From a bacterium (GTDB lineage Bacteria; Babelota; Babeliae; Babelales; UBA12409): a stretch of DNA of 64,000 nt. The notes beneath the pieces are model-generated. The model saw only the letters and a list, made by a program, of their open reading frames with translations. It had not been told where the DNA came from and searched no databases. The DNA lies in assembly GCA_021823685.1 (NCBI GenBank), contig JAKANL010000005.1:5489-69488 (forward strand), read 5' to 3'. How positions within the stretch are numbered: the first letter of the stretch is position 1; each line of letters opens with the position of its first letter. The translations under genes were made by a program, and so were the position numbers. Below are positions 33,039 to 50,959 of this stretch, piece after piece.

Positions 33039-34934
33039 TTAGCCCGGCAAGTAACCCGTCGCAACGCTAGCCGCTGAAGCAAGACCGCGAGCCAATTCTG
33101 CTGTTCTGGCTGCCGTTGACGCGCTTATCATGGGCGATTCAGGTGCGGTAACTTTCTCGGCAAGCATGCCCGTAAGTTTTGTCACGGCAGAAGGATCTTC
33201 CTGCGCCAACTGCTTAAACATAAGCCCAGCGATATCGGCTTCCGGCTGACTGGATGAGATTACCATTTTTGGCTCTGCAGCACCAGCTGGACTTGAAACG
33301 ATCGGTTCAAAAGATTCCTGAAAAGCCGTTGTCGGCTCACCAATAGAAAGTTCTATGGGGCCACGTACCGGTGCAACCGGTACATCCGTCGATTCGGCTG
33401 CCAAGCGCTCGCGCGCCTCTCTAGGATTAAACCATTCAAACATCGTTGAAAGCTTGTTGATGACGCGCTGGGTAACGCCCGCTTCTGGGGCCTTTTGTGC
33501 AGGTCTGGCTTGTGCGGGGAAAACAGCTGGGCCGGGAAGTTCAGCGTGCACAGTTGGACGTGTAAGATCGGTAATTTTTTGATTTAGCCCCTCGATAGCG
33601 CTTTTTTGCGCGCGAACAACGCTGGAAAGCTGCCCAATACGTACTTTGTCGGTTATGTTGGATGGGCGCTGCACAGCAGCAAGTTTCTGTTGAATGAGCC
33701 CGGGTTTTACAAACATCTCTTCTATTCTTGCGCGCATGGCAGATTGCCGTAAATTGCTCATCTCTTTATTTTTTGCGGTGACCGCTGCTTCAAGTTTGGC
33801 GCGATCACTTTCAATTTTAGCGGCAGCTTGCCGTTGATCAGCGAGCACCTTATCGGCATCTGCCAAACGCTGATCTTTGGTGCGCATCTCAGCAGTTACT
33901 TTATCGATTTCCTGCTCGTGGCGCTTAACGGCGATCTCGAGTTCTTCGGCGCGCTTTTGGGCGATATCACGCTCTTGAGCCGCTTTTGCAGCCTGCACGG
34001 TATCGAGCCGGTGCTGTTCTTGCGCCCTCGCCGCCGCATCCGTTATTTCTTTTTCATGGATTTCTTTTTGGGTAACAGCCTCTTGCTCATGACGTTTAAC
34101 GGCCGTCTCGAGTTCTTCAGCGCGCTTTTGGGCAATATCACGCTCTTGGGCCGCTTTTGCGGCCTGCGCGGTATCGAGCCGGTGCTGTTCTTGCGCCCTC
34201 GCCGCCGCATCAGTTATTTCTTTTTCATGGATTTCTTTTTGAGCAACAGCCTCTTGCTCATGACGTTTAACGGCCGTCTCGAGTTCTTCAGCGCGCCTTT
34301 GGGCAATATCACGCTCTTGGGCCGCTTTTGCAGCCTGCACGGTATCGAGCCGGTGCTGTTCTTGCGCCTTCGCCGCCGCATCAGTTGTTTCTTTTTCATG
34401 GATTTCTTTTTGGGTAACAGCCTCTTGCTCATGACGCTTAATGGCCGTATCGAGTACCTCAGCGCGCTTTTGGACAACAGCACGATCTTGGACAATTTGT
34501 TCTAAACGCTCTTTTAGATGCGCTGATTCTTGCGCGGTTTTGCTCATGGCATTTTTTGCTTCCTGGCAGCCTGTGCGTTCAGTCACAAGCAGCTTCTTAA
34601 TCGATTGAGCCCGTTGGCGCAAAAGCTCCATGTTGCTATTGTACGAAAATTGTTGCGATCTAATCCGCTTGGCAAGCGCATCCATCTCGCGCTGAATATT
34701 TTTACGCATGGAAACAGCCCCTTTGCCAAAACGATCCCCAAGCTTTCTACGCACACTCCCATGGATCACCTCAGGCTGAAGCTTGCCAAGCGCTAAAAGA
34801 CGCTCAACATCACTGCGCGCACTACGATAGGCATCGACGGCATCACCTGCCATCAAACCCGGTACGGAACAAAGGATAAAAAAGATACTGCGATATAATC
34901 GTGAAATAACCACCATTTCCCCTTTCAGGTCCAT
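33039..34934 (-). CDS. Secreted coiled-coil protein with 57-aa tandem repeats
   Basis: 631 aa with the signal-like segment SIFFILCSVPGLMA|GD. A long heptad-rich, charged region contains about 3.3 copies of RAEELETAVKRHEQEAV.QKEIHEKEITDAAARAQEQHRLDT.QAAKAAQERDIAQK. Confidence 0.8.
   Translation of the reverse strand: MDLKGEMVVISRLYRSIFFILCSVPGLMAGDAVDAYRSARSDVERLLALGKLQPEVIHGSVRRKLGDRFGKGAVSMRKNIQREMDALAKRIRSQQFSYNSNMELLRQRAQSIKKLLVTERTGCQEAKNAMSKTAQESAHLKERLEQIVQDRAVVQKRAEVLDTAIKRHEQEAVTQKEIHEKETTDAAAKAQEQHRLDTVQAAKAAQERDIAQRRAEELETAVKRHEQEAVAQKEIHEKEITDAAARAQEQHRLDTAQAAKAAQERDIAQKRAEELETAVKRHEQEAVTQKEIHEKEITDAAARAQEQHRLDTVQAAKAAQERDIAQKRAEELEIAVKRHEQEIDKVTAEMRTKDQRLADADKVLADQRQAAAKIESDRAKLEAAVTAKNKEMSNLRQSAMRARIEEMFVKPGLIQQKLAAVQRPSNITDKVRIGQLSSVVRAQKSAIEGLNQKITDLTRPTVHAELPGPAVFPAQARPAQKAPEAGVTQRVINKLSTMFEWFNPREARERLAAESTDVPVAPVRGPIELSIGEPTTAFQESFEPIVSSPAGAAEPKMVISSSQPEADIAGLMFKQLAQEDPSAVTKLTGMLAEKVTAPESPMISASTAARTAELARGLASAASVATGYLPG
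33936..34448. repeat. Tandem repeat, 171 bp x 3 full copies (plus partial copies on both sides), in-frame coding
   Basis: The unit start CTCGAGTTCTTC recurs at 33936, 34107 and 34278. The units differ at only a handful of positions. Confidence 0.9.
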
Positions 34935-35098: not shown

Positions 35099-36661
35099 TT
35101 AAATAGAAACACCCAGCTTAATCCAGGCGAGCCAACGGTTAGTTACCGTATTTGCATGTCCTGATTCATACGAACCACCGATACTGATAAATGTTGGATA
35201 TTCAATATCTTTCCAGGCATATGACAATGCACCATAAATAATCTGCGACATACAGCCAGGATATGCTGCTGAATTTTCTTCGATATCGTCATTGGTGATA
35301 GCAATATACGTTGGAACTTTTGCGCCCTGCGTTTGGATATCAGGATTACCCAATGGGAAGTTATCAATATCAAAAACAGGAGAATTTGGTTTGGCAAGAC
35401 TACGCGTATACGGCGTATTGACTCCGTTAGCCCACGCAGCCATCGCCGGAATACCTACGCGCTTGCTGCACTTGCCACATAAACAAATATCTTCGGCGTG
35501 GCGCATGAGCAAATTGGCACCACCTTCAGCGCTAAAACCACCCTCGTTGTAACGCAATGCAATGTTAATATCAATATTGTAGTGTGGATGCACTTCAACG
35601 CACATCGTCGTGTAGTTGATCAAGTAATCGAGATAGTCTGAGTTGCCTATAACTGCGTCATCTGCGGTCCAATCGGGCAGGAGCGCATCGGTTTTATAGC
35701 AAACCATGTAACGACTCCACGGTTTACCCTTTAAATCAAATGAACGTTTTTGCTTGTTTGGCACAAGATAGCGCAAAACCGACTCGCACAAGCACGTAAC
35801 CGTACGCCCTTTTTTATCGTTCAACAATTCTAATTCGTTGTTGGAACCAAAAAGAAGCTCAACGTGCCCATTGTTGCCCAAAATTGGTTCAAATAAATAA
35901 CGCGAACATGGTTTATTGCCGGTTGGAATTGTAATACCTACAAACCATCCGTGTAGACACTCTTCACTTTTATGCACGTCATAACCGAAGCGAGCCTCAA
36001 CTTGCGGAACCCCGGTTTTACGCAGACATCTATTCGTCATACGGCCGTAGCAACGCTTGGTATTGCAATCGCCCATGGCGCTGATAAACGAACCAAACGC
36101 ACCATCAGGCACATTGCCATTACCGGCATGAAGAGGGGTCTCGCACATATTTAAGCGATTTTCGATACGAACGACGGGTAGCGAGATATCAAACCAAAAA
36201 TTGCGCGGCAAGCGTTGGAAGTAAGAAAAGCCAACGCCAAACGATCGCTGCTTAGGGCAAAAACGAACGCGGCTGGCATAGCTGAGTGGTGTCAGATTAT
36301 CGATATCAACGGGAGCCGTCTGAATACCCAGGTTGTAAGCATTGATATCAACCGGTTGGACAAACGATGAGGTTGGAGCGTCGTCTTCAGCAACGATAAT
36401 TTCGTAACCTTCATTGGGCAAGAAATACTTTGCAATTTTGTTTGCCTGTGTGGTTTCACCGCCAAAAACGGTGGCCTGCAATGATGCTCCGTGGCCATCC
36501 TCACGCACACTACGAAAATCTCTGAAGATTGATATCAGTTCAGGCCGTTCTACTTTATAGAGTGGTGGTATTGGTAAAAATGTAAGTCCATAAACGTCGG
36601 CAAAGAGCCGTGCCGCCGGCATTGAGATTAAAAGAACAAGCAGTAGCTTTCGCGCCATCAT
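35099..36661 (-). CDS. Cysteine-rich putative outer-membrane beta-barrel protein / porin
   Basis: ATG at 36661 (AAGGA RBS; the track start at 36688 is TTG). Signal peptide MMARKLLLVLLISMPAARLFA|DV. It has many alternating-polarity strands (FGVGFSYFQ, WFDISLPVV, EARFGYDV, INIALRYN, ISIGGSYE) and ends in an amphipathic strand, WLAWIKLGVSI. I count about 15 Cys. Confidence 0.5.
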   Translation of the reverse strand: MMARKLLLVLLISMPAARLFADVYGLTFLPIPPLYKVERPELISIFRDFRSVREDGHGASLQATVFGGETTQANKIAKYFLPNEGYEIIVAEDDAPTSSFVQPVDINAYNLGIQTAPVDIDNLTPLSYASRVRFCPKQRSFGVGFSYFQRLPRNFWFDISLPVVRIENRLNMCETPLHAGNGNVPDGAFGSFISAMGDCNTKRCYGRMTNRCLRKTGVPQVEARFGYDVHKSEECLHGWFVGITIPTGNKPCSRYLFEPILGNNGHVELLFGSNNELELLNDKKGRTVTCLCESVLRYLVPNKQKRSFDLKGKPWSRYMVCYKTDALLPDWTADDAVIGNSDYLDYLINYTTMCVEVHPHYNIDINIALRYNEGGFSAEGGANLLMRHAEDICLCGKCSKRVGIPAMAAWANGVNTPYTRSLAKPNSPVFDIDNFPLGNPDIQTQGAKVPTYIAITNDDIEENSAAYPGCMSQIIYGALSYAWKDIEYPTFISIGGSYESGHANTVTNRWLAWIKLGVSI

Positions 36662-36737
36662 AATTATCCTTTCTTGATTGGCCAACAAAAAACCTACTCC
36701 TGTTCTACTACACTGAACAATGTAATGTAAACAAAAA

Positions 36738-36765
36738 GAAGAGGCAGTTTTTTAACTGCCTCTTC
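36738..36765. terminator. Intrinsic terminator hairpin
   Basis: GAAGAGGCAGTT-TTTT-AACTGCCTCTTC lies just downstream of the gene 36785..38437(-). Confidence 0.7.
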
Positions 36766-36784
36766 AAGAATAATCTAAAAAGAG

Positions 36785-38437
36785 TTATTTCGCAGATGCT
36801 GGTTGTGCTGGTTTAGAAGCTTCAGAAGTTGGAGTTTTTGATCCACGCAACCAACCGAACCAACGACGAGCCTCCGGTTGCGCTTGAGGTGCTACCGGCG
36901 TTGCTACAACAGGTTTTGGTTGTTGAACTACCGGAGTTACTGCTTGTGGCGTTGTTTCTGGTTTTGCTACTGGACTAACATTTTTTGACCAACGAAGCCA
37001 GTTAAACCAACCACCAACGGCTGCTTGCGCTTGAGGCGCTACCGGTGTTGTTACAGCAGGTTTCGCTTCTGGTTGCACGGCATAGAGCTCTTGCAATTCT
37101 TGAGTGAGACCTTCCAAGCTAGCAAAGATTCTTTGCGAAGGAAGCGTCACTTTTTGTTCGACCAACTTACCATTGGCATCTTTTGCAAATACCTTGTTAC
37201 CATTGGCATCTCTAGCCGATACCTTGATAGCATCATACTGCTTTTCGCCATTTTCAGCCTTCTTCAGGTTGACCTTGAGGCCCGGTTCATAAACCATAAC
37301 ATCGGCATAGTCATCAACGAGCTCATTGAGTTTAGCAACAAGCCGGGCATTGTTGGCCATGAGAGTCGCATTGAGACGTTGCGATTCGGAAAGACGAGCA
37401 TTAACTTGTTCAACCTGATCATGGTTGGTACGTTGCAATTCAGCGAGACGAACGTTAGCCTGATCAAGCTGATTATGCAATGCACGGTCGCCGTTTTCTA
37501 AGCAAACGCCGCGATGCATGGCACGGCTAAACGAATCGTTAACATTTTGCAATTCAGCATTTTTAGCGTTCAACTCTTGAACTTTAGCATTCAACAAGCG
37601 GTCTTTTTCGCTGACGCTATTGGTCAACGCAGCCACTTGTTGCTCAGCATTCTGCAATTCGGCGGTTTTTACGTCCAATTCTTGAACTTTGGCATTCAGC
37701 AAGCCGTCTTTTTCGCTGACGCTATTGGTCAACGCAACCACTTGCCGTTCAGTATTCTGCAATTCGACGTTTTTCGCGTCCAATTCTTGAACTTTGGCAT
37801 TCAGCAAGCCGTCTTTTTCGCTGACGCTATTGGTCAACGCAGCCACTTGCCGCTCAGTATTCTGCAATTCGGCGTTTTTAGTGTCCAATTCTTGAACTTT
37901 AGCATTCAACGAGCAGTCTTTTTCGCTAACGTTATCGGTCAGCGTAGCCACTTGCCGCTCACTATTTTGCAATTCAGCGTCCTTTGCGCTCAACTCTTGG
38001 CCTTTAACGACCATGGCTCGGTTAACTTCAGCTAATTTGGCATTTTTGGCCGTCAATTCTTGCGTCTTGGCAACCAAAGCCTTATCAAATTTAGCCAACT
38101 CGGCCTTCTTGTGTTCATTTACTTTGCGCACGATAGCACCAACGCCACGTACACCCTTGAAAGAAAGGCCCTTCACGCGCTTATCTGACGATTTCTTCAA
38201 AGAGGCAAGCGTAGCTTGTAACTTTGAAACGGCACCTTCAAGCCCAGAAATATTTTTTTGAGCTATCAACGCCTTCACTTGCGCATTAAATTGCCCAATA
38301 GTCTTGGCAATTTGATCTACCTTTTTCACTTGTTTTGCTGGAGCTGGTTTTTTGACCGGCTTAACCGCTTTAGGTTGTGCCGCCGACAAACCAAATCCGC
38401 TCAACAAAAGAACAGGCAATAATATCTTCTTGTACAT
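36785..38437 (-). CDS. Secreted coiled-coil protein with 35-aa tandem repeats and a duplicated C-terminal WFxWLRxSK motif
   Basis: ATG at 38437 is preceded by GGAGG (the track start at 38485 is further upstream). Signal peptide MYKKILLPVLLLSGFGLSA|AQP. There are about 4.5 copies of NAKVQELD.KNAELQNTERQVAALTNSVSEKDGLL. Confidence 0.8.
   Translation of the reverse strand: MYKKILLPVLLLSGFGLSAAQPKAVKPVKKPAPAKQVKKVDQIAKTIGQFNAQVKALIAQKNISGLEGAVSKLQATLASLKKSSDKRVKGLSFKGVRGVGAIVRKVNEHKKAELAKFDKALVAKTQELTAKNAKLAEVNRAMVVKGQELSAKDAELQNSERQVATLTDNVSEKDCSLNAKVQELDTKNAELQNTERQVAALTNSVSEKDGLLNAKVQELDAKNVELQNTERQVVALTNSVSEKDGLLNAKVQELDVKTAELQNAEQQVAALTNSVSEKDRLLNAKVQELNAKNAELQNVNDSFSRAMHRGVCLENGDRALHNQLDQANVRLAELQRTNHDQVEQVNARLSESQRLNATLMANNARLVAKLNELVDDYADVMVYEPGLKVNLKKAENGEKQYDAIKVSARDANGNKVFAKDANGKLVEQKVTLPSQRIFASLEGLTQELQELYAVQPEAKPAVTTPVAPQAQAAVGGWFNWLRWSKNVSPVAKPETTPQAVTPVVQQPKPVVATPVAPQAQPEARRWFGWLRGSKTPTSEASKPAQPASAK
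37546..38010. repeat. Tandem repeat, 105 bp x about 4.5 copies, in-frame coding
   Basis: The (T)TGCAATTC phase marker recurs with its TGC ending at 37550, 37655, 37760, 37865 and 37970, an exact 105-bp period. Confidence 0.9.
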
Positions 38438-38619
38438 AAGAAACCTCCAGTTTGTACAATTAAACTTCGGAAACTTAAACCGCATTACTTTACCCCCCCA
38501 AAAGGGAGGCTTTTCACGCCTATTTAAAGGTTCCTGCCATTACAATATACAGAATATACTAATTAAAAAAAATTGCAAGTTTATTTTAACTGAAAATAAT
38601 TTTCCAACGAGAGGAAGTA

Positions 38620-39100
38620 TTCCTGCGCCAGATGGTTTTTGGGGAAATGCGGCCCCAAATAGCGCTGCCATTCGGCGCATCCGACCGCAACCTAAGGCAC
38701 CAGCGCCCCGTGGGCAGGCAGGACAAGCGAAAGTAAGATTGAGAGCCGGCAGGTAGGAATTTAGACTGCCCCCTTCGACAAGCTCCCGCCGCCGCCACGG
38801 CTATGGCGCCAGCCAGGCGTAGCTTAGCATTTCTTCGAAGAAATACCTGCGTAAGCGAAGACTGGCGCGCAGGCAGGGAGAGCGGGGGAAATTTAGCCTG
38901 TGTACCCTTCGGTAAACTCAGGATGCATGGGAAATAAGAGATTTTCGTAGGAAATGGTGGAGCGCTAGGCGTACGGAATATAACCATCACACAAACCGCT
39001 CACCATGGGCCATATCCCGCTCATTCTGCCCGATACCGTCCCCGCTCATTCTGAGCTTGTCGAAGAATGTCGTGCCCCGGCATGCGGGCCGTAGAAAACA
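38620..39100. repeat. Composite GC-rich repeat region, copy D, filling an intergenic gap
   Basis: It contains the 57-nt hairpin unit (38804-38860, inverted relative to 2798-2854). A 13-nt perfect inverted repeat is CTTCGACAAGCTC (38773-38785) paired with GAGCTTGTCGAAG (39053-39065). The direct repeat CCCGCTCATTCTG occurs at 39016 and 39041. ORFs predicted here read as low-complexity word salad (LSLPKG, AKLRLAG). Confidence 0.7.
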
Positions 39101-39102
39101 CC

Positions 39103-41181
39103 CTAATCAGCCAAACCGAACTGTTTTAAAAGGGCATCAACGGTAGGTTTGCGCCCCAAAAACCGCTCAAGCAACAATTCCGGATCAACAGCCCCGCCCT
39201 TGCCCAAAACTTGGTCAACAAACTTCTTGCCAACGGCTGGATTGATCAACCCCTGCTCTTTGATGGCCGAAAAGAGGTCCAAAGCAAACACCTTCGACCA
39301 TAAATAACTGTAATATTTGGCGGCATAGCCCGTCAGATGCCCAAAATTGGCCGGCAGATGCACGGCGTCATCCCAGGCGATATAAGGCTCATCGACCGAC
39401 CGCATGATATCGACATATACCCGCTGAATATCCTTCTTACCCTCAGCATGGAGCCGCAACGAAAGCAGCGTCTTGCCCAGTTGATCAAGCATAAACAAGC
39501 CCGCATCAAAACGGTCAATAGCGCCCAATGTCGCAATCATATCGTCGGACAACGGTTGACCGCTACGATAGTGCTTGGAAAGCTTTTTAAGAATACCCGG
39601 CTCTTTAACCCACTGCTCAAACATCTGAGAAGGCATTTCGACAAAATCACGCTTGACGCTTGTGCCAGAAAAACTAAACATGCGTGTCGCCCCAACCATA
39701 CCATGCATGGCATGGCCGAATTCGTGGAAAAACGTTTCCACATCGGCAAATTTGAGCAAGCCCGGCCTATCCGTCGTTGCGTGCGGAAAATTGGCAATAA
39801 TGGCAATAACAGCCGGACAAAGCACGTCACCCTCTTTTTGTGCTGATACCACATCAATCATACAGGCATGCGAATACTTGTTGGGGCGGGGGTATAAATC
39901 AAATAATAAATAACCGCGCAGGCGCCCCGCATCGGTATCGTAAACGGCAAAACAATACACAGATTCATGCCATAAGCCCGCACAGGTAACGCGCTCAAAG
40001 CGCAACCCTAAAAATTGCTGATAGATCGCACAAATAGCGTCGATAACGTGATCAACCGGAAAATACTCTGAAAGCAACTGGTCGTTAAGCTGCAAATGCT
40101 TTTGTTTGTAGTACTCTTTGACGTATGCAACATCCCACGGCTGTAAAACACCATCAGCGGCCAACGTAATGCCCTGCGGTAAATCGCCCAGCCACGCGTT
40201 GAATTCTTGGGCGCGCTTACGCTCTAATTTGGGCCGCAGTTCGCCTAAAAACGCCTCAACGGCCTGCGGTTGCTTGGCCATTTCGCTATCTAAATCGTAG
40301 GAGGCAAAATCAGGAAAACCAAGCATCTTTGCTTTTTGGTCACGCAACGTAATAATCTCATCAAGCAGCTTGTAATTTGCGGGATACGCACGATTATTAA
40401 ATGCTTCATGCACACGCTTGCGCGTTTGGCTATTGCGCGCGAATTTGATCACGGTTTTGGCCGTGGGATAATCCATCGTAACCAAAAAGTTACCCTGCCC
40501 GTCTTTTGCCAAATGCTCTAGAACGCTGGCCGGCACACCTTCAAGCTCGGCCTCCGAACAGGCAACACGCGTAGCATCCGAAGAAATATTTTTATCAAAT
40601 TGCAGCGAAAGCTCGCTTATTTTGTTGGTTAACGCAATAACCGCAGCAAGCCGATCATCGGGTAATAGCATACCATTGCGCTTGAAATCGCGCATGAGTT
40701 CCTGGTTAAAATACTGCTGCTCATCATCGAGCACTTCAGTTTTACTGTTACCATCGATGTACGTCTGAATGGCCTTAAAAAGATCTTTATTTTGGAGCAC
40801 GTGCTTTTGCACAAAGGGGTTAAGCTCGAGTAATGCATCAAAACAGGCCTGACGAACTGCCGCATCCGGACTTACTTCATTAAGCACCTCAAGCGGCGCC
40901 ATCAGGCGCTTGGCCGTACGTAAAAGCGTGTCATACGCCTGCATAGTATTAGCAAATGTGCGGCTTTCAGCGGAAATATCCAGTATCGTTTGAGTATCAT
41001 CCAGTATTTTTGTTTTAAGCACAGCAGTGCGCGTTTCCACCTGCTTCACCGTTGATGGAAAAAGCGTAACAACATCGGCAATATCGGCTATGGAACACAC
41101 AAAAATATCCTTCGGTTGATTGTTTTTGATACACGAACAAGAACAGAACAAAAAACTGATAACCACACAAAACTTTTTCAT
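39103..41181 (-). CDS. M3-family zinc metallopeptidase (oligopeptidase A / thimet-like), possibly a lipoprotein
   Basis: It has the HEFGH zinc motif (FFHEFGHAMHG), the downstream EMPSQMFEQW, and the N-terminus MKKFCVVISFLFCSCSC. ATG at 41181. Confidence 0.88.
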   Translation of the reverse strand: MKKFCVVISFLFCSCSCIKNNQPKDIFVCSIADIADVVTLFPSTVKQVETRTAVLKTKILDDTQTILDISAESRTFANTMQAYDTLLRTAKRLMAPLEVLNEVSPDAAVRQACFDALLELNPFVQKHVLQNKDLFKAIQTYIDGNSKTEVLDDEQQYFNQELMRDFKRNGMLLPDDRLAAVIALTNKISELSLQFDKNISSDATRVACSEAELEGVPASVLEHLAKDGQGNFLVTMDYPTAKTVIKFARNSQTRKRVHEAFNNRAYPANYKLLDEIITLRDQKAKMLGFPDFASYDLDSEMAKQPQAVEAFLGELRPKLERKRAQEFNAWLGDLPQGITLAADGVLQPWDVAYVKEYYKQKHLQLNDQLLSEYFPVDHVIDAICAIYQQFLGLRFERVTCAGLWHESVYCFAVYDTDAGRLRGYLLFDLYPRPNKYSHACMIDVVSAQKEGDVLCPAVIAIIANFPHATTDRPGLLKFADVETFFHEFGHAMHGMVGATRMFSFSGTSVKRDFVEMPSQMFEQWVKEPGILKKLSKHYRSGQPLSDDMIATLGAIDRFDAGLFMLDQLGKTLLSLRLHAEGKKDIQRVYVDIMRSVDEPYIAWDDAVHLPANFGHLTGYAAKYYSYLWSKVFALDLFSAIKEQGLINPAVGKKFVDQVLGKGGAVDPELLLERFLGRKPTVDALLKQFGLAD

Positions 41182-41262
41182 ATACAAAACTCCAAAATCT
41201 CGCCTTGTATATCGTAATCGCAACAATAGTTTTTGTAAAAAAATGGCGCGAAAACCGATGGA

Positions 41263-43218
41263 TTAATCCGTAGATTTTAATATCTGCAGTTCATTGCGTA
41301 GTTTAATCGCCAATTCAAAATCAAGATTTTCTGCAGCCTGGCGCATATTTTGCTCAAGCTCGACCATGCGTTTAATGCGCGCATTTTTATCCAGGCGCGT
41401 ACTGCGGCTGCCATGTTTTTTGTACGCTTTAGCGGCTGCAAGCGGTGAGCCGGTGATACTTTTAACGACTTCGCGGGTAACGGTGCGCGGTTGAATCCCG
41501 TGATCTTTGTTATAGGCTAGCTGCAAGTTACGCCGACGCGCTGTTTCATCCATAGCAACACGCATCGATTCGGTAATCTTATCGGCATACAAAAGCACTT
41601 TGGCCTCGCTATTGCGCGCAGCACGGCCGATCGTTTGTATTAATGAGCGGCGATCGCGCAAAAAACCTTCAATATCGGCGTCCATGATCGCCACGAGCGC
41701 AACCTCGGGCAGATCAAGGCCTTCGCGCAATAAGTTTACGCCGACCAAACAATCAAAAACGCCCAAACGCAATTTTTGCAAAATATCAGTTCGTTCTGGT
41801 GTTTTAATCTCGCTGTGCAGATAACACACTTTAATCTGGTTATTTTCAAGATGATCGGCCAATTCTTCGGCCATCTGCTTGGTCAAAACAGTTACTAAAC
41901 AGCGAAAGCCTCGCTTGGCCGTCTGACGAATATGCTCAATTAAATCGTTCACCTGGTTCACCCGGCTGCGCACCTCAACAACTGGATCAACCAATCCGGT
42001 TGGACGAATAACTTGTTCGACAACGCCTTGGCTCTGCGCAAGCTCATATTGGCCAGGGGTGGCTGATACAAAAATAACGTCACGCAAATACTTTTCAATT
42101 TCATCAAACTTGAGCGGACGGTTATCCAAAGCCGAAGGCAATCTAAAACCAAAATCAATCAGCGATTGTTTGCGTGAGCGATCGCCTGAATACATACCAC
42201 CAAGCTGCGGGACAGCAATATGCGATTCATCGATGATGCACAAAAAATCTTCCGGAAAAAAGTCAAATAAACAAAATGGCGCTTGTCCGCCGGCACGGCC
42301 GTCAAAGTGGCTGGAATAATTTTCGATGCCATTACAATAGCCATATTGCTCCAAAAGCTCTAAATCGTGCGCAACCCGGCGCCCAATACGATCTTGATAA
42401 AGCGGATTAGCCATTTTGGGCAACCACTCATTAAGTTCACGCTTAATGCTCATAATCGCTGAATTCTTTTTATCTTGCGTAGTTACAAAGTGTTTGGCAG
42501 GAAAAACAATCGTATGATCAACGCTCTCGATAACGGTATTATGCTGGCGATCGACCCAGGCCATATGTTCAATCGTATTGCCAAAAAACTCTATGCGCAG
42601 CTTATGCGCGGCGTAGGGCGCCTGGATTTCAACAGTATTACCCACAACCTGAAACGTTCCCGATGCTCGTTGGACATCGTTACGTTCGTATTGGATAAAA
42701 ATCAATTTGTGTAACAAATCGTTACGAGAAATCTTGTCACCAATATTAATCGGCAGCGCTAACTCACGATAAGCGGTTGGGTCACCCAACGAATAAATAC
42801 ACGAAACAGAAGCAATCATAATCACATCACGGCGGTTCATTAACGATGCCGTTGCTTCAACGCGCAAACGCTCAATCTCGCGGTTTACTTTGGTTTCCTT
42901 GGGAATATAAATATCCTGTGCCGGCAGGTACGATTCAGGCTGGTAAAAATCGTAATAGCTCACAAAATAACAAACTTTATTGTGCGGAAAGAATTGGTAA
43001 AACTCTTCGTATAACTGCGCGGCAAGCGTTTTATTAGGCGATAAAATAAGCACGGGCCGATCTTGCCCAGCAATCACATTAGCTAACGTAAACGTCTTGC
43101 CCGAACCGGTCACACCCATGAGCGTTGAGCGCCCGGGACGCTGGTCAGAGAGCTGGGCAATAGCGCCCGGCTGACTGCCAGCAGGCTGATACGGTGAAAC
43201 AAGTTTAAATAACGACAC
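41263..43218 (-). CDS. uvrB: Excinuclease ABC subunit B
   Basis: Walker A GVTGSGKTF, helicase motifs (DESH, TVLTKQMAEEL) and a C-terminal UVR domain. I prefer the GTG at 43218 (AAGGGGG RBS), which gives MSLFKLVSPYQPAGSQP, like E. coli MSKPFKLNSAFKPSGDQP. Confidence 0.95.
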   Translation of the reverse strand: MSLFKLVSPYQPAGSQPGAIAQLSDQRPGRSTLMGVTGSGKTFTLANVIAGQDRPVLILSPNKTLAAQLYEEFYQFFPHNKVCYFVSYYDFYQPESYLPAQDIYIPKETKVNREIERLRVEATASLMNRRDVIMIASVSCIYSLGDPTAYRELALPINIGDKISRNDLLHKLIFIQYERNDVQRASGTFQVVGNTVEIQAPYAAHKLRIEFFGNTIEHMAWVDRQHNTVIESVDHTIVFPAKHFVTTQDKKNSAIMSIKRELNEWLPKMANPLYQDRIGRRVAHDLELLEQYGYCNGIENYSSHFDGRAGGQAPFCLFDFFPEDFLCIIDESHIAVPQLGGMYSGDRSRKQSLIDFGFRLPSALDNRPLKFDEIEKYLRDVIFVSATPGQYELAQSQGVVEQVIRPTGLVDPVVEVRSRVNQVNDLIEHIRQTAKRGFRCLVTVLTKQMAEELADHLENNQIKVCYLHSEIKTPERTDILQKLRLGVFDCLVGVNLLREGLDLPEVALVAIMDADIEGFLRDRRSLIQTIGRAARNSEAKVLLYADKITESMRVAMDETARRRNLQLAYNKDHGIQPRTVTREVVKSITGSPLAAAKAYKKHGSRSTRLDKNARIKRMVELEQNMRQAAENLDFELAIKLRNELQILKSTD

Positions 43219-43385
43219 GTTTTTAACCCCCTTGGCAAGAACCAATCGCGCAATCGCAATATATGAACGGGCGAATACCAGTTCTTTTATTAGAGTATCA
43301 CAAATGGCTTATTTTGGCCAAAAAACCAGACTTTTGAGGTAAGCTTTAGAAGAACGCCAAAAGTTTTTAAAAGCAGGTAAAAAAT

Positions 43386-43703
43386 ATGAACAAAGGTAAA
43401 AGTTATAACAATTTACTCATTAAATCACTCAAAAAGCCTCAAGAAGCGGTTGCTTACTTAAATGCTGCTTTGGAGGAATGCAAAGATGGCAGCGTAGAAT
43501 CTCAAAAACTTCTCTTTATCGCCTTTAAAAATGTCGCGCTCGCACAGGGCGGTTTTTCAAATCTTGCAACCAAGACAGGTCTAGGCCGTGAAAGCCTCTA
43601 TAAAACGCTGTCAAAAAGGGGTAATCCAAAACTAACCACCTTAACAACATTGATCAGCGCAATGGGTTTTGACTTAAAAATAAGTTTGCCACAAAAACGC
43701 TAG
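43386..43703 (+). CDS. HigA-type addiction-module antidote protein (HTH), apparently orphan
   Basis: 105 aa. LKKPQEAVAYLNAALEE...FLIAFKNVALAQGGFSNLATKTGLGRESLYKTLSKRGNPKLTTLTTLISAMGF matches the TIGR02684-type antidote proteins. There is no intact toxin ORF upstream. Confidence 0.75.
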   Translation: MNKGKSYNNLLIKSLKKPQEAVAYLNAALEECKDGSVESQKLLFIAFKNVALAQGGFSNLATKTGLGRESLYKTLSKRGNPKLTTLTTLISAMGFDLKISLPQKR

Positions 43704-43757
43704 AGCTTTCCCAAATGCCACCATTTTGTTATAGAGCAAATCACGCCTATTGAGAAC

Positions 43758-43791
43758 AAAAAAAGGGAGCGGTAAACCGCTCCCTAAAAAA
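43758..43791. terminator. Bidirectional intrinsic terminator
   Basis: AAAAAGGGAGCGG-TAAA-CCGCTCCCTAAAAAA lies between convergent genes. Confidence 0.75.
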
Positions 43792-43806
43792 TTACTTTGA
43801 ACTGCG

Positions 43807-44451
43807 TTACTTAACTTTTGAAAGCAACGTCATTAATTCGCAGATCTGCGCTTCACTGAGCACGTTAACCACATTTGGATCAGCCAAAACATCTTTGCAT
43901 AGGCTATATGGATTAGAGGTTGCAACCACGCGGCTTAATGGCGTTTGGTTAAACCAACGAGCTAATTTAAGCAACCCGTAAGATGAACCGCCAAACACAG
44001 CACCCCTGAGCACATCGTACGGCAAAATGTACTTTGCAAAATTGGTTAAGTGAAGTTGGCCGGGAAGGAATGCGCCGCTCGTCAAGGACGAAACTTTTGC
44101 ATCATATGCACCTTTCAAGTAAGACGCATATCCTTCGTCCAATGCATTATGTGCAATGTAGACAGTGCACAAAGCAGCGCCTGCAGCGCACACCATTGCA
44201 GCTAGCGCGGCTTTTTTAAAACGAGGACGCTCCGCTTCAGCCAATTTGATAGCTAAACCAAAGTCGGAAGCGTTAGCAAAAGAACGACCGCCTGATAAAA
44301 CAGCCGGATGGCTGGCGACAAATGCACGAGCAAAATCAGCACAGTTTTGTGCGTTAATTTTAACAACATCCGCTCGCAGCGGCGCAAGCATCGCCACCAC
44401 AGCCAGCAATCCAAAGAAACACGACTTACGTACCATGAAAATCCCTTTCAC
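43807..44451 (-). CDS. Small secreted protein, array member 1
   Basis: 214 aa. Signal peptide FFGLLAVVAMLAPLRA|DV, N-terminal NCADFARAF motif, internal hydrophobic segments, and a C-terminal SLCKDVLADPNVVNVL motif. Confidence 0.6.
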   Translation of the reverse strand: MKGIFMVRKSCFFGLLAVVAMLAPLRADVVKINAQNCADFARAFVASHPAVLSGGRSFANASDFGLAIKLAEAERPRFKKAALAAMVCAAGAALCTVYIAHNALDEGYASYLKGAYDAKVSSLTSGAFLPGQLHLTNFAKYILPYDVLRGAVFGGSSYGLLKLARWFNQTPLSRVVATSNPYSLCKDVLADPNVVNVLSEAQICELMTLLSKVK

Positions 44452-44572
44452 TAAAAATTAACTCATTGCAGTATATGATGCCCTAATACCAAAAAATGTC
44501 TATCAAAAAGTAGGATTTTTGCCCGAAGTTAGGCGCATTTACACGTTCCGGCGTATTTTTTCGTTGGCAATA

Positions 44573-45277
44573 TCACAAAAACTTGGCAGCCAAAATCAAT
44601 ACGCCGGCACCGATTGCCAAATAATTCGGCTTGCGCGGCCATATACCGCTCCTGGCAATTCCAAGAACATTTATTCCATACCCTACCTCAATAAACGGCA
44701 TTTCTTGCGCCCATTTTACCCGCTTGGCAGCAGCCCACGCGCGCAATTCATCGAGAACCCGCGCATCAAAAAGTCCGGCCAACTCCGGGCAAACAAGCAC
44801 GCGTTCAACCAACAAAAAATCGTCAAAATTTTTCAGCGCCTGACGCACCATGATACGATCACTACGCTTGCCCTTCCCCGCGCGCAAAGCGCAACCAGAA
44901 GCCCGTTGCACCAAAAAACGTAACACCTCTCCCAAACAAGAAAAATCATCTTTGTTCTTTTCAATGGCTTCTTGACTTTTTGCAAGAGCTTCTAAATCTC
45001 CAGCAAGCGTTTTTTGAGCTTCTTCAAGACCTTTTCGTTCATCACCCAATGCCGAACAGCCTTTCCAGGCAAAAATGGCCATCACGGCATATGCAAGCGC
45101 TCCCTTCCAAGCCATTTGATAATCGGCATCTTCTTTGGCATAAATCTGCTTAATCTTTTTTGAAAGTTCTGCCGCGCGTGCTGATAAAAAATCAGCGCTA
45201 CACGATGGCGCAACTTTTTGCATGGCCAGGCAGCTACTCGTTACCACCAAAGAAGCAAAAAAAACGAGACAACGCAT
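44573..45277 (-). CDS. Small secreted/membrane protein, array member 2
   Basis: ATG at 45277 (the track start at 45304 is TTG). Signal peptide MRCLVFFASLVVTSSCLA|MQ, SCSADFLSARA motif, LVCPELAGLFDARVL motif, and a C-terminal TM segment, YLAIGAGVLILAAKFL. Confidence 0.6.
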   Translation of the reverse strand: MRCLVFFASLVVTSSCLAMQKVAPSCSADFLSARAAELSKKIKQIYAKEDADYQMAWKGALAYAVMAIFAWKGCSALGDERKGLEEAQKTLAGDLEALAKSQEAIEKNKDDFSCLGEVLRFLVQRASGCALRAGKGKRSDRIMVRQALKNFDDFLLVERVLVCPELAGLFDARVLDELRAWAAAKRVKWAQEMPFIEVGYGINVLGIARSGIWPRKPNYLAIGAGVLILAAKFL

Positions 45278-45290
45278 ATTAAAATTTTCT

Positions 45291-45977
45291 TTAAGAAGGC
45301 TCAACCGTTAACCCAGCAACGGCACACATACCATCAAGTACGGCATCACCGGGCATGGCAGCTTGGCACCACGTATCAATTAAGACCGGATTATCCAATA
45401 ATAACTGTTTTAAACATACCGGGCACAACCCTTTCCCAACGCGCTTGCCCGTTTGATAATCGGTTGCCTTAATTCCAAGACGCCAAGAACTGTACCCCAG
45501 GGCCGTTGCAGCGCACAGACGGGAGAATGCGCCACTCCGCCGAGCGAAGAAATTAAACATGCCTGAAGCGCCAAATTTGACCGCATAAATTGCACAAAAC
45601 GCGGCCGCCGGCAGATATAAATAGCGTTTTTCTTGTTCATCCTGCACCGTCTTTGCCAGCACGCTTGCATCATGCAAGCACTGCCCATGATGGGTCGCCT
45701 TGAAATATGGCAAAAGCCCTATTCTGGGAAAGCGCGGCACGGGCGAAACTTTTTGTTCTTGTGGTATGGGTTCTGGCTTGGCCGACTCACGGGCCACGGG
45801 CGCAACAGGTGCCGCTGGAGCTGGGGGCGTCACTTCTTTTTCAGAAACTGGCGGGACTTGTTGAACAACAGGAGCCTGAATAACCACGGATTGAGCAGTG
45901 GCCGGCTCCATCGCCAAACACCGGCATGTACCACTAATACCCAAAATGAACATCGTTATATGTGCACGCGTTGCCAT
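45291..45977 (-). CDS. Small secreted protein, array member 3 (Pro-rich linker)
   Basis: 228 aa. Signal peptide ...FILGISGTCRCLA|MEP, a Pro/Val/Ala-rich spacer, hydrophobic segments, and a C-terminal GLCPVCLKQLLLDNPVL. Confidence 0.6.
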   Translation of the reverse strand: MATRAHITMFILGISGTCRCLAMEPATAQSVVIQAPVVQQVPPVSEKEVTPPAPAAPVAPVARESAKPEPIPQEQKVSPVPRFPRIGLLPYFKATHHGQCLHDASVLAKTVQDEQEKRYLYLPAAAFCAIYAVKFGASGMFNFFARRSGAFSRLCAATALGYSSWRLGIKATDYQTGKRVGKGLCPVCLKQLLLDNPVLIDTWCQAAMPGDAVLDGMCAVAGLTVEPS

Positions 45978-46070
45978 ACTTTTCCTCGTATTTTTAAAGA
46001 TAAAATCTGGGTATCATTATGGACAAAGAACGAAAAAAATCAATCGATTTCAGCGTATATCACGTTACAA

Positions 46071-46340
46071 TCAGCCACTTATTTGCGCATCCAAAAACAA
46101 TTTTGTCCAATCAATACGCCATAACGGTCTAACCGACTTCATATCTGGCAAACACAAAGCGCACAACCACGGCACCGTCGTACGTCGCGGATCCGGCTTA
46201 TGTGCACGTTGCAAAACCGCACTCGTCATAACCGGACCAAGCGAATCAAAACTAGGTGAACGTTCAATCCGCCGCTTCTGCCCGCCGGCATTCAAGCTCA
46301 TAACCGTGGCGGCAATCAACACAAACATTATTTTTTTCAT
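46071..46340 (-). CDS. Small secreted protein, array member 4
   Basis: ATG at 46340 with a GAGGGG RBS. Signal peptide MKKIMFVLIAATVMSLNA|GG, and the motif WLCALCLPDM. Confidence 0.45.
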   Translation of the reverse strand: MKKIMFVLIAATVMSLNAGGQKRRIERSPSFDSLGPVMTSAVLQRAHKPDPRRTTVPWLCALCLPDMKSVRPLWRIDWTKLFLDAQISG

Positions 46341-46357
46341 AAATCCCCTCAACTTAA

Positions 46358-46864
46358 TTAAATATCTGCAAGTCCCTCACGCATGCCACGCAGCAATTCT
46401 GGATGCAAGCACGCGCAGGCTTCCTGGTTTACCACAATGTGTTTGGCGATGTGTGGCATCGCACGCGATACAAACGCTCCGCGGCTGTAAAGACTATGCC
46501 AAGCTGCCGTCATGAAAAAAGCGGTAAGTGCAGATATGAGCACGGCGCTATCCAGGTAGATCGGCCAATAGTTCGCCTTGGAAAATATATCGCTCTGAAC
46601 GTCTTGTATTTTTCTCAAGTCACACGCAACGGCGTATCCGGCTTTTGCTGCCGCTGCAGCAAAAAACAATTTGTAGAAAAATTTTGGTCCGAAATAACCC
46701 GTTTTTGCCTGACAAAAAGTATTGAGCTGCTGCGCAAAACCGACTATTGGTACCGATCGATTTTTATCAGAATTCACCGCACTCGATTTTGGCTCCATGG
46801 CACCAAGCCCGCCCCCACCAATGGTACTTGCTAAACAAAACACCGCAAATACTACGCTCTTCAT
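46358..46864 (-). CDS. Small secreted protein, array member 5 (clear paralog of member 6)
   Basis: 168 aa. Signal peptide ...ASTIGGGGLGA|MEP. FAQQLNTFCQAK and NQEACACLHPELLRGMREGLA align with LAEQLNAFCHRQ and DENACKSLDQDLLRGLREGFA of the next gene. Confidence 0.65.
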   Translation of the reverse strand: MKSVVFAVFCLASTIGGGGLGAMEPKSSAVNSDKNRSVPIVGFAQQLNTFCQAKTGYFGPKFFYKLFFAAAAAKAGYAVACDLRKIQDVQSDIFSKANYWPIYLDSAVLISALTAFFMTAAWHSLYSRGAFVSRAMPHIAKHIVVNQEACACLHPELLRGMREGLADI

Positions 46865-46877
46865 GAACTACTCCCCA

Positions 46878-47414
46878 TCACTTTGTTCTATCGCTTCCTG
46901 TACAAGCAAAGCCCTCACGCAACCCGCGCAATAAATCTTGATCTAACGATTTGCAGGCATTTTCGTCGGCAAGAATACGCACAACCATATCCGGCTCCTC
47001 GTGGGCAAAAAAACGCCCCAGCCTAGCGCGCTGTACCCCAGATGTCGCCAGCGCAAAACCAACCAAAGATGCCAGTATTAACGTGCCATCTATACCAATG
47101 GTCCAGTTACTCCTATCGTCTTTTTTTACTTCCTGCACAATATCACAGCCAAGTTTAACCATAAGCGCCGCCATGAATGTCTGGAAAAAACTGCCGGTTG
47201 AAACAGCAGAAACCTGCCTGTGGCAAAAAGCATTCAATTGTTCGGCCAACTCTACGGCCGTAGGCGCCGGTTTTTCTTGTTTTACGGTCTCTTTTGGCGC
47301 ATCGCCCTGTGGCACCTTAATTTGTACCGTTGACCCCAATTCTACGCGCATCATCGCATCAAGGCGACTGCCACCGCTTCCCAAAAGAAGCGCTACCCAT
47401 ACCAATTTCTTCAT
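46878..47414 (-). CDS. Small secreted protein, array member 6
   Basis: The ATG at 47414 gives MKKLVWVALLLGSGGSRLDA|MM. It is a paralog of 46358..46864. The longer track ORF (to 47573) adds an implausible N-terminus. Confidence 0.6.
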   Translation of the reverse strand: MKKLVWVALLLGSGGSRLDAMMRVELGSTVQIKVPQGDAPKETVKQEKPAPTAVELAEQLNAFCHRQVSAVSTGSFFQTFMAALMVKLGCDIVQEVKKDDRSNWTIGIDGTLILASLVGFALATSGVQRARLGRFFAHEEPDMVVRILADENACKSLDQDLLRGLREGFACTGSDRTK

Positions 47415-47566
47415 AAAGCACTCCCAACTAAAATTATTTGTATTATGGAAACAATAACGACAAAAAGCAAGCGCCCAAAGCCATTTTTTGGATAAAAAAC
47501 GCAATTCTTGCATTTTCATGAGCCAATCAAATAAAATTAACAATAGAAATAAAAAGGGGTTGCGCA

Positions 47567-48394
47567 ATGACACCTGTATTTAAGAAATATATAAGCTTTT
47601 TAGGCATTCTGACATGCATGGTGTGGCATACCAATCAAGCAATTATTGTTTTTACTTATAAACAACCAGAAACCGTAACCATCAATAAAGTAGATTTATC
47701 CCTGACCGCCGATAAAGTTGATGATTTCTTGGTTACCGACCTTGATTATTTTTCAACCAGTGGCCCCTTCGGAACAAAAACCCATGCTGAAAAATCCAAA
47801 AAGGGCGAAACAGAAAAAGAACCGCAAAAAATCGTAGAGCCACCCTGCACTGATTGGTATTGTACACCATACGCAAGAGAATCGTTCACTAAGCTTGAAA
47901 AACCTAAACCAGTCAAAAAAGACATATCAATCGACAACGAATTCGAGTACGGAAAATTATTTAATCAAACAGTTTCTGCACCAACCAACTACAAGTTCTT
48001 TGAAAAAGACTCATTTAACCTGCTTTCGCGCGCTAGCTTTGAGCTCACTTACCGACCATCAGATTTCTACACGACAACCGACTTGTTTAAAACCGACCCA
48101 CAACTCAATTCTATTATCGATTACTACGTCAATGGGCAAAAGATGGAACCGGGAGAAACGCTTTTTGCTTACCAGCAAACCGCTTACTTGGAAGTCGTGC
48201 GTAAAGATGAAGTCTCTTTTGGTGGTAGTTACTCTCAAACACCTTCTGTCTATCAGATTACCTGCCCGGCTGGTCGCCGCGTTGAATTTGACGTCTCTGA
48301 AATTGAAGGCCTGCCAACCTACCACATCACCACACGAACAAAAGGCTGCAATATCACCCTTACTGGATATGTTGGTGCCGCGTTTGCTGGATAA
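47567..48394 (+). CDS. Hypothetical secreted protein
   Basis: 275 aa with an AAAAGGGG RBS and an N-terminal hydrophobic segment ISFLGILTCMVW. I recognise no family. It is transcribed divergently from the array. Confidence 0.55.
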   Translation: MTPVFKKYISFLGILTCMVWHTNQAIIVFTYKQPETVTINKVDLSLTADKVDDFLVTDLDYFSTSGPFGTKTHAEKSKKGETEKEPQKIVEPPCTDWYCTPYARESFTKLEKPKPVKKDISIDNEFEYGKLFNQTVSAPTNYKFFEKDSFNLLSRASFELTYRPSDFYTTTDLFKTDPQLNSIIDYYVNGQKMEPGETLFAYQQTAYLEVVRKDEVSFGGSYSQTPSVYQITCPAGRRVEFDVSEIEGLPTYHITTRTKGCNITLTGYVGAAFAG

Positions 48395-48550
48395 ATGCGA
48401 ACGAACAAAATTTGACGATCAGTCAAAAAAACGCTACTATTAAAGCGATTATCGTGTATGTGTAACCTTGTAACCTCTTAGCTTTCTACAGCCGTTAAGA
48501 GCTTGTGCTTATTTTCAATAAGCACCGATCGGTTCAGGAGTTTTTTCTTT

Positions 48551-50335: not shown

Positions 50336-50358
50336 TCAATCATCACTGAAAGTTAGTT

Positions 50359-50901
50359 ATGGCAAATAAAATGGAACACACACTCGGCATTATAAAGCCG
50401 GACGCGGTAGCTCAGGGACATACCGGCGATATCATTAGCATGCTCGAAAAACAAGGCTTCACCATAGACCGCATGGAAAAGGGGCTTATTGGCAAAGAAT
50501 ATGCCGCAATGTTTTACGATGTGCATAAAGATAAGCCATTTTTCAATGAGCTTGTCGATCACATTTCATCCGGCCCTATCGTAGTTATGGCGTTACGCAA
50601 AGAAAATGCCATTGCCGATTGGCGTAAACTTATGGGAAGCACCAATCCAGCAGGCGCCGAAGAGGGCACTATTCGCAAGAAATTTGGTACCAACATCGGC
50701 AAAAATGCCGTCCATGGTTCCGATTCTCCTGAAACGGCTGCGCGCGAACTGATGATTTTCTTTGGCGGTGAACAACACAAAGAATCCAAAGACGATTCTT
50801 GCGCATGCGGCTGCACCCAGGAGGGTGATGAGTGCCCAGAAGGCAAGGGTTGCGAAGATTGCCCATGCTGCCACGATTGTTCCGGTTGCCATAGGAAATA
50901 A
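50359..50901 (+). CDS. ndk: Nucleoside diphosphate kinase with a C-terminal Cys-rich extension
   Basis: The core is EHTLGIIKPDAV...GPIVVMAL...NAVHGSD (active-site His). Residues from about 139 to 180 form an extra tail, HKESKDDSCACGCTQEGDECPEGKGCEDCPCCHDCSGCHRK. Confidence 0.9.
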   Translation: MANKMEHTLGIIKPDAVAQGHTGDIISMLEKQGFTIDRMEKGLIGKEYAAMFYDVHKDKPFFNELVDHISSGPIVVMALRKENAIADWRKLMGSTNPAGAEEGTIRKKFGTNIGKNAVHGSDSPETAARELMIFFGGEQHKESKDDSCACGCTQEGDECPEGKGCEDCPCCHDCSGCHRK

Positions 50902-50917
50902 CTACTTTTATTAAAGC

Positions 50918-50959
50918 AAAAGTCCCCGTCATTTCGATCATGAAATGACGGGGACTTTT
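50918..50959. terminator. Bidirectional intrinsic terminator
   Basis: AAAAGTCCCCGTCATTTC-GATCAT-GAAATGACGGGGACTTTT lies between convergent ndk and nusB. Confidence 0.8.

Follow-up and report, generated by a model that had tools for sequence, protein, structure and literature searches.

The stretch of DNA analyzed here, hereafter the window, comprises 64,000 nucleotides (nt) of contig JAKANL010000005.1 from a member of the Babelales (assembly GCA_021823685.1). In this study, we closely examined its G+C-rich intergenic block at positions 38620-39100, which lies between two genes on the minus strand and harbors one intact member and several putative remnants of a short hairpin family, together with one copy of a 67-nt palindrome. 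The features of the locus are the following, with positions counted along the window:

39103-41181, minus strand: gene for an M3-family oligopeptidase, the upstream flank (Pfam PF01432, E = 6e-109)
38620-39100, no strand: the G+C-rich intergenic composite, bounded by the M3 peptidase gene's stop codon (39103) on one side and by the next gene's AT-rich promoter spacer on the other
39039-39077, plus strand: intact member of the hairpin family (41.9 bits, E = 1e-8 with a covariance model named R1)
38996-39028, plus strand: two truncated 5'-arm heads, CCGCTCACCATG at 38996-39007 and CCCGCTCATTCTG at 39016-39028, the latter being part of a 13-nt direct repeat
38903-38925, minus strand: degenerate copy CATCCTGAGTTTACCGAAGGGTA, with three mismatches to the 16-nt core and undetected by R1
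38804-38870, no strand: lineage-specific imperfect palindrome of 67 nt, with arms of ~33 nt around TTCGAA
38769-38790, minus strand: loop-only relic GGGAGCTTGTCGAAGGGGG without a complementary stem, forming a 13-nt inverted repeat with 39053-39065
36785-38437, minus strand: gene for a repeat-rich coiled-coil secreted protein, the downstream flank, with a likely ATG start at 38437 and GGAGG ahead of it
2788-2854, no strand: second copy of the 67-nt unit, sharing its first 8 nt, GCGCACCA, with the 3' end of tRNA-Arg(ACG) (2719-2795)

The first-pass annotation had described the block as visibly richer in G+C than its flanks and as a composite of reusable hairpin-forming words, and both descriptions proved accurate. 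Its G+C content is 57.0%, compared with 45.1% for the window, 46-47% for the flanking genes and 32.1% for the spacer at 38486-38619. Two short repeats listed there were also recovered, namely a perfect 13-nt inverted repeat (38773-38785 / 39053-39065, 267 nt apart), matched in length by 0.3% of 1000 sequences simulated for the region with a first-order Markov model, and a direct repeat of 13 nt, CCCGCTCATTCTG (39016-39028 and 39041-39053), with a frequency of 0.7% in such simulations. The stretches 38620-38712 and 38935-38995 of the block are without any match.

Positions 36180-51181 of the window are identical to a contig of the public metagenome-assembled genome GCA_027347085.1 (uncultured Dependentiae/TM6), in which the exact M3 peptidase protein is recorded, and a Logan contig from run SRR13300764 matches the block up to 38848, where it ends. 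This indicates that the block is not an artifact of a single assembly; the underlying reads are possibly shared. The best named relatives of the peptidase carry the annotation Candidatus Dependentiae or Babeliales, and the nearest relative overall is only 52% identical. When the species-genome collection was scanned with protein patterns, no orthologous locus was found.

An open reading frame (ORF) of 134 amino acids (38586-38990, minus strand), which is a gene in the public annotation, found no homolog other than itself when 5.8 billion proteins were searched, and it has no Pfam match. A real protein gene in the block was therefore ruled out, and the gene call is, judging from these searches, spurious and made of repeat debris, as had been suspected for the ORFs predicted here. 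The absence of a nearby transposase was likewise borne out, with no Pfam transposase among the genes called on the 15-kb contig L001 or among ten ORFs scanned. Known RNA genes (RNase P RNA, tmRNA, riboswitches and others) were ruled out by Rfam 15, which at the gathering score returned five tRNAs only for the whole window and, in a permissive scan of 38400-39250 with E up to 10, merely chance matches far below threshold. A hammerhead-like core in CUGAG...CGAAG was rejected on inspection, as C and U occupy the positions of the invariant G8 and A9. Terminator or promoter function of the block was set aside, since a consensus scan found no intrinsic terminator and promoter-like sites on the plus strand only.

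The hairpin was recognized by comparing copies from the window, the relative L004 and a Novosphingobium plasmid that a plasmid search with the block had returned, and its family was followed in a metagenome scan in which only CCGCTC and the loop were fixed and the stem positions were left free. Its members are ~35 nt long and follow the pattern CCGCTC-NNNN-TGAGCYTGTCGAA-NNNN-GAGCGG with a conserved loop of 13 nt. The three loop-proximal stem pairs form in 146, 141 and 141 of 147 copies, with C-G, G-C and T-A pairs being exchanged. In 100 aligned copies, 119 double-change cells were counted versus 48 expected, a number reached in 0 of 500 shuffles, and pairing collapsed once the partner columns were slid. 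The 13-nt loop is constant while the stem covaries, which shows that the hairpin fold is under selection. No Rfam model matches the hairpin, and canonical copies from a Novosphingobium plasmid reach only generic microRNA-precursor models, below threshold. A full-text literature search, with subscription journals outside its coverage, returned no description of the hairpin or of a link between GIY-YIG proteins and repeats resembling repetitive extragenic palindromes (REPs). The cross-phylum hairpin family thus appears to be undescribed.

R1, the covariance model built from the copies of the metagenome scan, found nothing significant in the 64-kb window besides the hairpin at 39039-39077, which lies 26 nt from the stop codon of the M3 peptidase gene. 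This copy consists of a 5' arm, CCGCTCATTC (39042-39051), the loop TGAGCTTGTCGAA (39052-39064), which is the exact loop of the family, and a 3' arm, GAATG (39065-39069). The resulting stem, CCGCTCATTC/GAATG, has 5 bp, or 6 bp counting the closing T-A pair, and the outer 3' arm has decayed from GAGCGG to TCGTGC. Compared with the common CATCC/GGATG, the stem reads CATTC/GAATG, a compensatory replacement of CC/GG by TC/GA that is directed toward AT, as expected in the genome of the window. The copy is 96% identical over 27 nt to one in the metagenome contig L126 and 91% identical over 33 nt to a Novosphingobium plasmid, on which two inverted copies lie between parA and parB. In L126 (39% G+C), the same head-head-hairpin layout as in the window is found downstream of gatB (32-nt alignment, 72%, E = 0.045). 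It belongs to an array at 2270-2788 whose ~62-nt units are composed of the hairpin words and CCGCTCA heads also present in the block, and within which the contig ends.

The remaining hairpin-like words of the block are candidate copies supported by their context. In the relic at 38769-38790, R1 matches the loop word only (38775-38785; 11.8 bits, E = 0.65), and the degenerate copy at 38903-38925 shows weak matches to family copies in two metagenome contigs, L013 and L040 (E = 0.1-0.3). The two are in direct orientation to each other, and each is followed by CTAAATT and spacer words of the GCAGGCAGG type; the direct-repeat families D1 and D2 are spaced 134-155 nt apart, and the heads constitute family D3. 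The window's two occurrences of the 12-mer GAGCTTGTCGAA both fall within the block. Read on the minus strand from the peptidase stop codon, the block begins with the intact hairpin in reversed orientation and two more GAGCGG-type tails, which correspond to the 13-nt direct repeat. These are followed by ~60 nt matching nothing, the degenerate word CTGAGTTTACCGAAGG with CTAAATT and CGCTCTCCCTGCCTGC, the 67-nt palindrome, the loop-only word GGGAGCTTGTCGAAGG with CTAAATT and CGCTTGTCCTGCCTGC, and ~90 nt matching nothing. The orientations of the copies, (-), (-) and (+), are a partial fit to alternating clusters.

Relatives of the window's genome carry syntenic genes for large proteins after the peptidase gene, and the gap in between differs among them. 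It measures 112 nt and is without any element in one relative (L003), 314 nt with one hairpin in another, a distant member of the Dependentiae (L004, whose peptidase is 49% identical), and about 620-665 nt in the window. In L004, GAGCTTGTCGAA lies 57 nt after the orthologous peptidase gene, and R1 scores 34.8 bits (E = 7e-7) at this site. Relative to the peptidase gene, the hairpin runs antisense in the window and sense in L004. The simplest history would be that elements repeatedly inserted, duplicated and decayed at a site that tolerates them, and not that an RNA gene was inherited.

Elsewhere, the hairpin was found in at least 120 metagenome contigs, in 96 IMG/VR viral contigs and in 35 plasmid records (85 places, nearly all under no annotated feature). 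The plasmid hosts are Sphingobium, Novosphingobium (21 places on one megaplasmid), Methylobacterium, Sinorhizobium, Comamonas, Nitratireductor and two cyanobacteria. The G+C content of the metagenome and viral loci ranges from 34 to 74%, and the hairpin looks alike throughout. According to a rough gene prediction, ~15% of the copies fall within predicted genes, compared with a coding background of ~81%. Gaps between convergent genes are somewhat favored and those between divergent genes disfavored. Among 125 copies, the orientation relative to the neighboring gene is the same in 63 and opposite in 62, while neighboring hairpins less than 200 nt apart are mostly inverted (66 inverted, 8 direct). 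In two pairs of related metagenome contigs, the hairpin occupies the matching intergenic position, between nuoJ and nuoK in L013 and L066 and beside gatC in L043 and L072, which indicates that copies can persist through speciation. In another contig (L015, 4100-4160), a distinct hairpin word, GTCATTGCGAGCGAAGCGTGGCAATC, which contains the mini-hairpin motif GCGAAGC, directly adjoins a family hairpin; from this pairing, several hairpin families may share sites or machinery. A 1-kb contig (L060, 41-960) carries three hairpins around a YefM/YoeB-like toxin-antitoxin pair.

The genes flanking the hairpins are unrelated housekeeping genes. When all ORFs of 120 listed loci were clustered, the top-ranked recurrent family was a GIY-YIG protein of ~95 amino acids, the only recurrent family with a nuclease domain. 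After dropping a member from a fused ORF, it occurs in four of these loci, which ties it with common families such as SDR. A recurrent transposase beside the hairpins was ruled out, as the ORFs cluster as housekeeping and GIY-YIG proteins; a recurrent Y1-like neighbor was also absent from this clustering, and no direct RAYT (REP-associated tyrosine transposase) profile search was made. The GIY-YIG protein is a bare catalytic domain (Pfam GIY-YIG), and its closest structures are those of the UPF0213 proteins 1ZG2 and 1YWL. Close homologs are mostly found in Novosphingobium and other Sphingomonadales and also in Shinella.

Inverted copies or variants of the hairpin bracket the UPF0213-type GIY-YIG gene in nine of 11 loci examined, in Sphingomonadales, Rhizobiales and Methylobacterium. 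In L034, L045 and L079, hairpins lie at most 50 nt from the gene, on both sides in L034 and L079, while L045 ends at the gene. In six contexts (these three plus L131, L141 and L142), a hairpin lies 13-26 nt before the ORF, and all five contexts that extend past the ORF have an inverted hairpin 0-36 nt after it. The hairpin-bracketed cassettes are located as follows:

L131, 1159-1530
L141, 1160-1530
L142, 1087-1530
L079, 640-1333
L034, 2752-3165

The distances between hairpin and gene are nearly constant in the Sphingomonadales-type loci. In the homolog contexts ribE|aminotransferase, ccmB|peptidase M24 and nadB|nrd, a gene-oriented hairpin lies 15-20 nt before and an inverted one 19-36 nt after the gene. 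The gene sites vary between related genomes and also include nrdR|methyltransferase. Plasmid homologs with 46-58% identity carry matching variant hairpins, at the following loci:

L127, 1380-1815: variant hairpins
L128 and L130, 1400-1950: variant hairpins

A homolog on a Sphingomonas parapaucimobilis plasmid is accompanied by a hairpin with the loop TGAGCGAAGTCGAA, and those on two Methylobacterium plasmids by an expanded form, CCTCATCCTGAGG..CCTCGAAGGAGG. This pattern suggests that hairpin subtype and nuclease clade may vary together. In Bacillus subtilis, the relative yazA lies in an operon, overlaps trmNF and rsmI and has no hairpins.

Besides the hairpin family, the block contains the 67-nt palindrome. 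The first-pass annotation had reported an inverted match of 57 nt (38804-38860 / 2798-2854), which is real and which, using blastn within the window, extends to 67 nt (38804-38870 versus 2788-2854; 60/67, 89.6% identity, E = 1e-16). It is the sole significant long-range repeat of the block within 64 kb; a third match in the tRNA spacer at 2915-2962 is weak and not significant (E = 6.8). The minus strand of the unit folds with -31.0 kcal/mol (z = -2.3). In the central 16-nt palindrome, which reads ATTTCTTCGAAGAAAT or ATGTCTTCGAAGGCAT depending on the copy, one T-A pair is replaced by G-C in a double change and one T-A by T-G. The pairing-preserving changes noted earlier are thus present, but the conclusion that this hairpin is under selection is weak, because there is a single compensatory event in two copies, a number that allows no argument from covariation.

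The search for further copies of the 67-nt unit was negative. A two-arm pattern gave 0 matches in 185,579 species genomes (one per species), JGI metagenomes and IMG/VR, plasmids yielded chance-level matches only, 750 kb of collected loci contained no match, and phages gave no match to the 511-nt region in which the unit lies. The earlier view of this unit as a repeat family was therefore not supported; two copies were found, both in the window, and the demonstrable family is the word that had been listed there as minor 13-nt repeats. The ends of the unit are palindromic (TGGCGC...GCGCCA), a GTAG sequence is internal and not terminal, and the flanks of the two copies share no common duplication such as is expected at the target site of MITEs (miniature inverted-repeat transposable elements). 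A degenerate tRNA beside 38870 was ruled out, as the alignment upstream of the shared 67 nt is unlike tRNA-Arg and ARAGORN finds none. The Logan contig mentioned above (L002) stops exactly at the center of the palindrome (38848), which could point to more copies being present in the sample or to the hairpin having broken the assembly. Between tRNA-Arg(ACG) and tRNA-Ser(TGA), the 310-nt spacer holds, at 2855-3105, more hairpin-like words, e.g., CATTCTCCTTCGCTAAAGCAACGAAGAAT at 2918-2946.

The block is probably a cluster, similar to REPs and bacterial interspersed mosaic elements (BIMEs), of degenerate, non-autonomous palindromic elements that inserted downstream of the M3 peptidase gene and there underwent partial duplication and partial decay. 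It holds at least two kinds of elements, the ~35-nt cross-phylum hairpin (one intact copy, two heads and two putative relics) and the 67-nt palindrome found only in the window's genome. The first-pass annotation had called the element non-autonomous or structural and likened its ORFs to those of REP/MITE-like elements, a view supported insofar as the elements behave as non-autonomous repeats of that type. For the family as a whole, we tentatively propose, while giving the idea somewhat less than an even chance, that the hairpin TGAGCYTGTCGAA and its loop variants are the non-autonomous partner of the clade of ~95-amino-acid UPF0213 GIY-YIG proteins. They would form a second, mechanistically different REP/RAYT-like system that extends across phyla, viral contigs, plasmids and the intracellular Dependentiae, and this would give UPF0213 a function.

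Several observations weigh against these two proposals. Statistically, the window has one family member, and its two relics are no better than a chance match, as the R1 score of 11.8 bits at 38775-38785 is also reached inside the gene at 50548. The status of the 67-nt unit as a repeat element rests on analogy, both known copies being in the window, and the fold asymmetry of the block described below also agrees with RNA-level selection. The 64-kb window contains neither a GIY-YIG gene nor a remnant of one. A decayed GIY-YIG gene between the window's hairpins had been considered and was dismissed, as a six-frame profile search was empty and the orientation of the copies is opposite to that in the cassettes. 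The nuclease and the hairpin are linked by association. The six canonical contexts comprise three from a hairpin-based search and three from homologs at least 79% identical to one of these, so that part of the sample is not independent, and two of the 11 GIY-YIG loci (L124 and L129) have no hairpins. On two Methylobacterium plasmids, a longer hairpin (CCTCATCCTGAGG-inner stem-CCTCGAAGGAGG) is found in reversed orientation. Of the 96 viral contigs with the hairpin, a single one encodes a nuclease relative, which is weak (E = 2e-7) and not beside a hairpin.

Other explanations of the block were weighed against a REP/BIME-like cluster. It could be or contain a dedicated structured RNA on the minus strand, i.e., a 3' untranslated region of the peptidase gene, a 5' leader of the coiled-coil gene or a small RNA, with the hairpins as modules under RNA-level selection. 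Both flanking genes are on this strand, which folds with -204.4 kcal/mol (z = -2.58, 0/100 shuffles as good), compared with -180.4 kcal/mol (z = -0.83) for the plus strand, so that, of the two, only the minus strand beats shuffled sequences. The 13-nt inverted repeat closes, in the fold of this strand, a domain of ~280 nt, and a family hairpin is located at the matching place in a distant relative. However, Rfam gave no match even at E up to 10, the block is missing in L003 and represented by one hairpin only in L004, and the orientation of the hairpin relative to the peptidase gene is opposite between L004 and the window. Its content is, moreover, a mosaic of truncated and decayed repeat copies, and the 125 copies elsewhere show no orientation bias relative to transcription. 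We thus regard a dedicated RNA as unlikely.

The 67-nt copies might instead be scars of site-specific recombination at tRNA-Arg, i.e., att-like sites of an integrated or inverted segment of 36 kb, with the rest of the block being incidental. Since the 3' ends of tRNA genes are classical integration sites, this explanation gains support from the last 8 nt of tRNA-Arg(ACG) being included in one copy and seven of these eight being kept in the other, as GCGCGCCA. Yet the copies are inverted and not direct, and they have 8 nt of tRNA in common versus 59 nt of downstream sequence. The 8 nt form the outer stem of the palindrome, which accounts for their retention. The scanned ORFs of the 36 kb are cellular (leucyl-tRNA synthetase, mechanosensitive channel, sulfate permease and, by sequence, GroEL), with no integrase or phage domain among them, making this origin very unlikely. 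A decayed gene remnant or horizontally acquired G+C-rich DNA with coincidental repeats would explain why the G+C content is foreign to the genome and why 38620-38712 and 38935-38995 match nothing. This we consider highly improbable, given that no called frame has protein homology, that the repeats are well beyond chance and that the sequence is identical in separate assemblies. The AT-adapted compensatory stem changes of the intact hairpin also argue for a resident element and not for contaminating DNA.

If the block is a REP/BIME-like cluster and the GIY-YIG nuclease is its partner, the nuclease would recognize the hairpin loop, probably on extruded or single-stranded DNA. It would then spread solo hairpins and hairpin pairs in trans to new sites, as is thought for RAYT and REP. 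With no GIY-YIG gene within 64 kb, the copies in the window would be orphans or relics. In the 3' region of the peptidase transcript, the hairpins and the 67-nt palindrome would be predicted to fold, and they may limit read-through or protect the 3' end.

REP elements, BIMEs and REPINs have been described together with flanking RAYT transposases of the Y1/HUH, IS200/IS605-like type (PMC2817692, PMC3116915, PMC3184786). Like these, the hairpin family consists of short, G+C-rich, mostly intergenic palindromes that occur in many copies and alternating clusters and have no gene of their own. A single small nuclease-type gene per genome bracketed by inverted copies is a further parallel to REP/RAYT, but here this gene encodes a GIY-YIG protein of ~95 amino acids (UPF0213) and not a tyrosine HUH transposase. 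One end of a REP is marked by a conserved tag, GTAG or CGTC (Di Nocera et al. 2013, PMC3733652). In contrast, the hairpin consensus has no such tag and conserves the 13-nt loop TGAGCYTGTCGAA and the stem base CCGCTC/GAGCGG. Whereas REPs are usually species- or genus-specific, near-identical hairpins were found in Dependentiae, Alpha- and Betaproteobacteria, cyanobacteria and viral contigs, yet no copy was found in 5,426 genomes of Escherichia coli, the REP model organism. The copy number of REPs per genome is typically >100; the 64-kb window holds one intact hairpin and two copies of the 67-nt unit.

MITEs resemble the family in being small, non-coding and intergenic, and inverted hairpin pairs with a spacing of 30-100 nt look like hairpin-gene-hairpin cassettes reduced by internal deletion. 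Unlike MITEs, neither 67-nt copy has a target-site duplication, the parent is not a DDE transposase, and the ends are formed by hairpins, not by plain terminal inverted repeats. GIY-YIG homing endonuclease genes of the free-standing type are likewise small and lie between unrelated housekeeping genes in related genomes. Homing endonucleases, however, have a DNA-binding domain in addition and are directed at a single long site within a gene or intron, whereas the hairpin-linked protein is a bare catalytic domain associated with a dispersed hairpin. Rickettsia palindromic elements, which are in-frame insertions in coding genes and specific to their genus, similarly persist as palindromic repeats in the reduced genome of an intracellular lineage, but no element of this sort was observed here.

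For the genome of the window, the consequences are modest: a 480-bp G+C island and a spurious gene call are explained as repeat debris, and elements of this type reach the Dependentiae. The wider point is a hairpin that recurs nearly base for base in unrelated bacteria, plasmids and viral contigs and brackets a tiny GIY-YIG gene in the fashion of REP and RAYT. Should the nuclease indeed move the hairpins, REP-like "genomic dust" would have arisen at least twice with different enzymes, and the UPF0213 proteins (relatives of YhbQ and YazA, with solved structures and no function assigned by the depositors) would gain a testable role. In that case, many "hypothetical proteins" that are translated hairpins could also be removed from annotations; the words SLSK, FDKL, ELVE and LRQAQ occur in hairpin loci.

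Further repeats were observed elsewhere in the window. The coiled-coil gene beside the block contains a tandem repeat of four 105-nt units (37544-38068), and an ORF of 631 amino acids at 33039-34934 contains one of three 171-nt units (33910-34491). The region at 12529-13918, after tRNA-Gly, comprises two small toxin-antitoxin-like gene pairs. It also harbors a 116-nt direct repeat (12750-12865 / 13534-13649, 78% identical) and a palindrome, GGGGGCAGAAATTTCTGCCCCC, that occurs twice, at 13190-13216 and 13848-13882.

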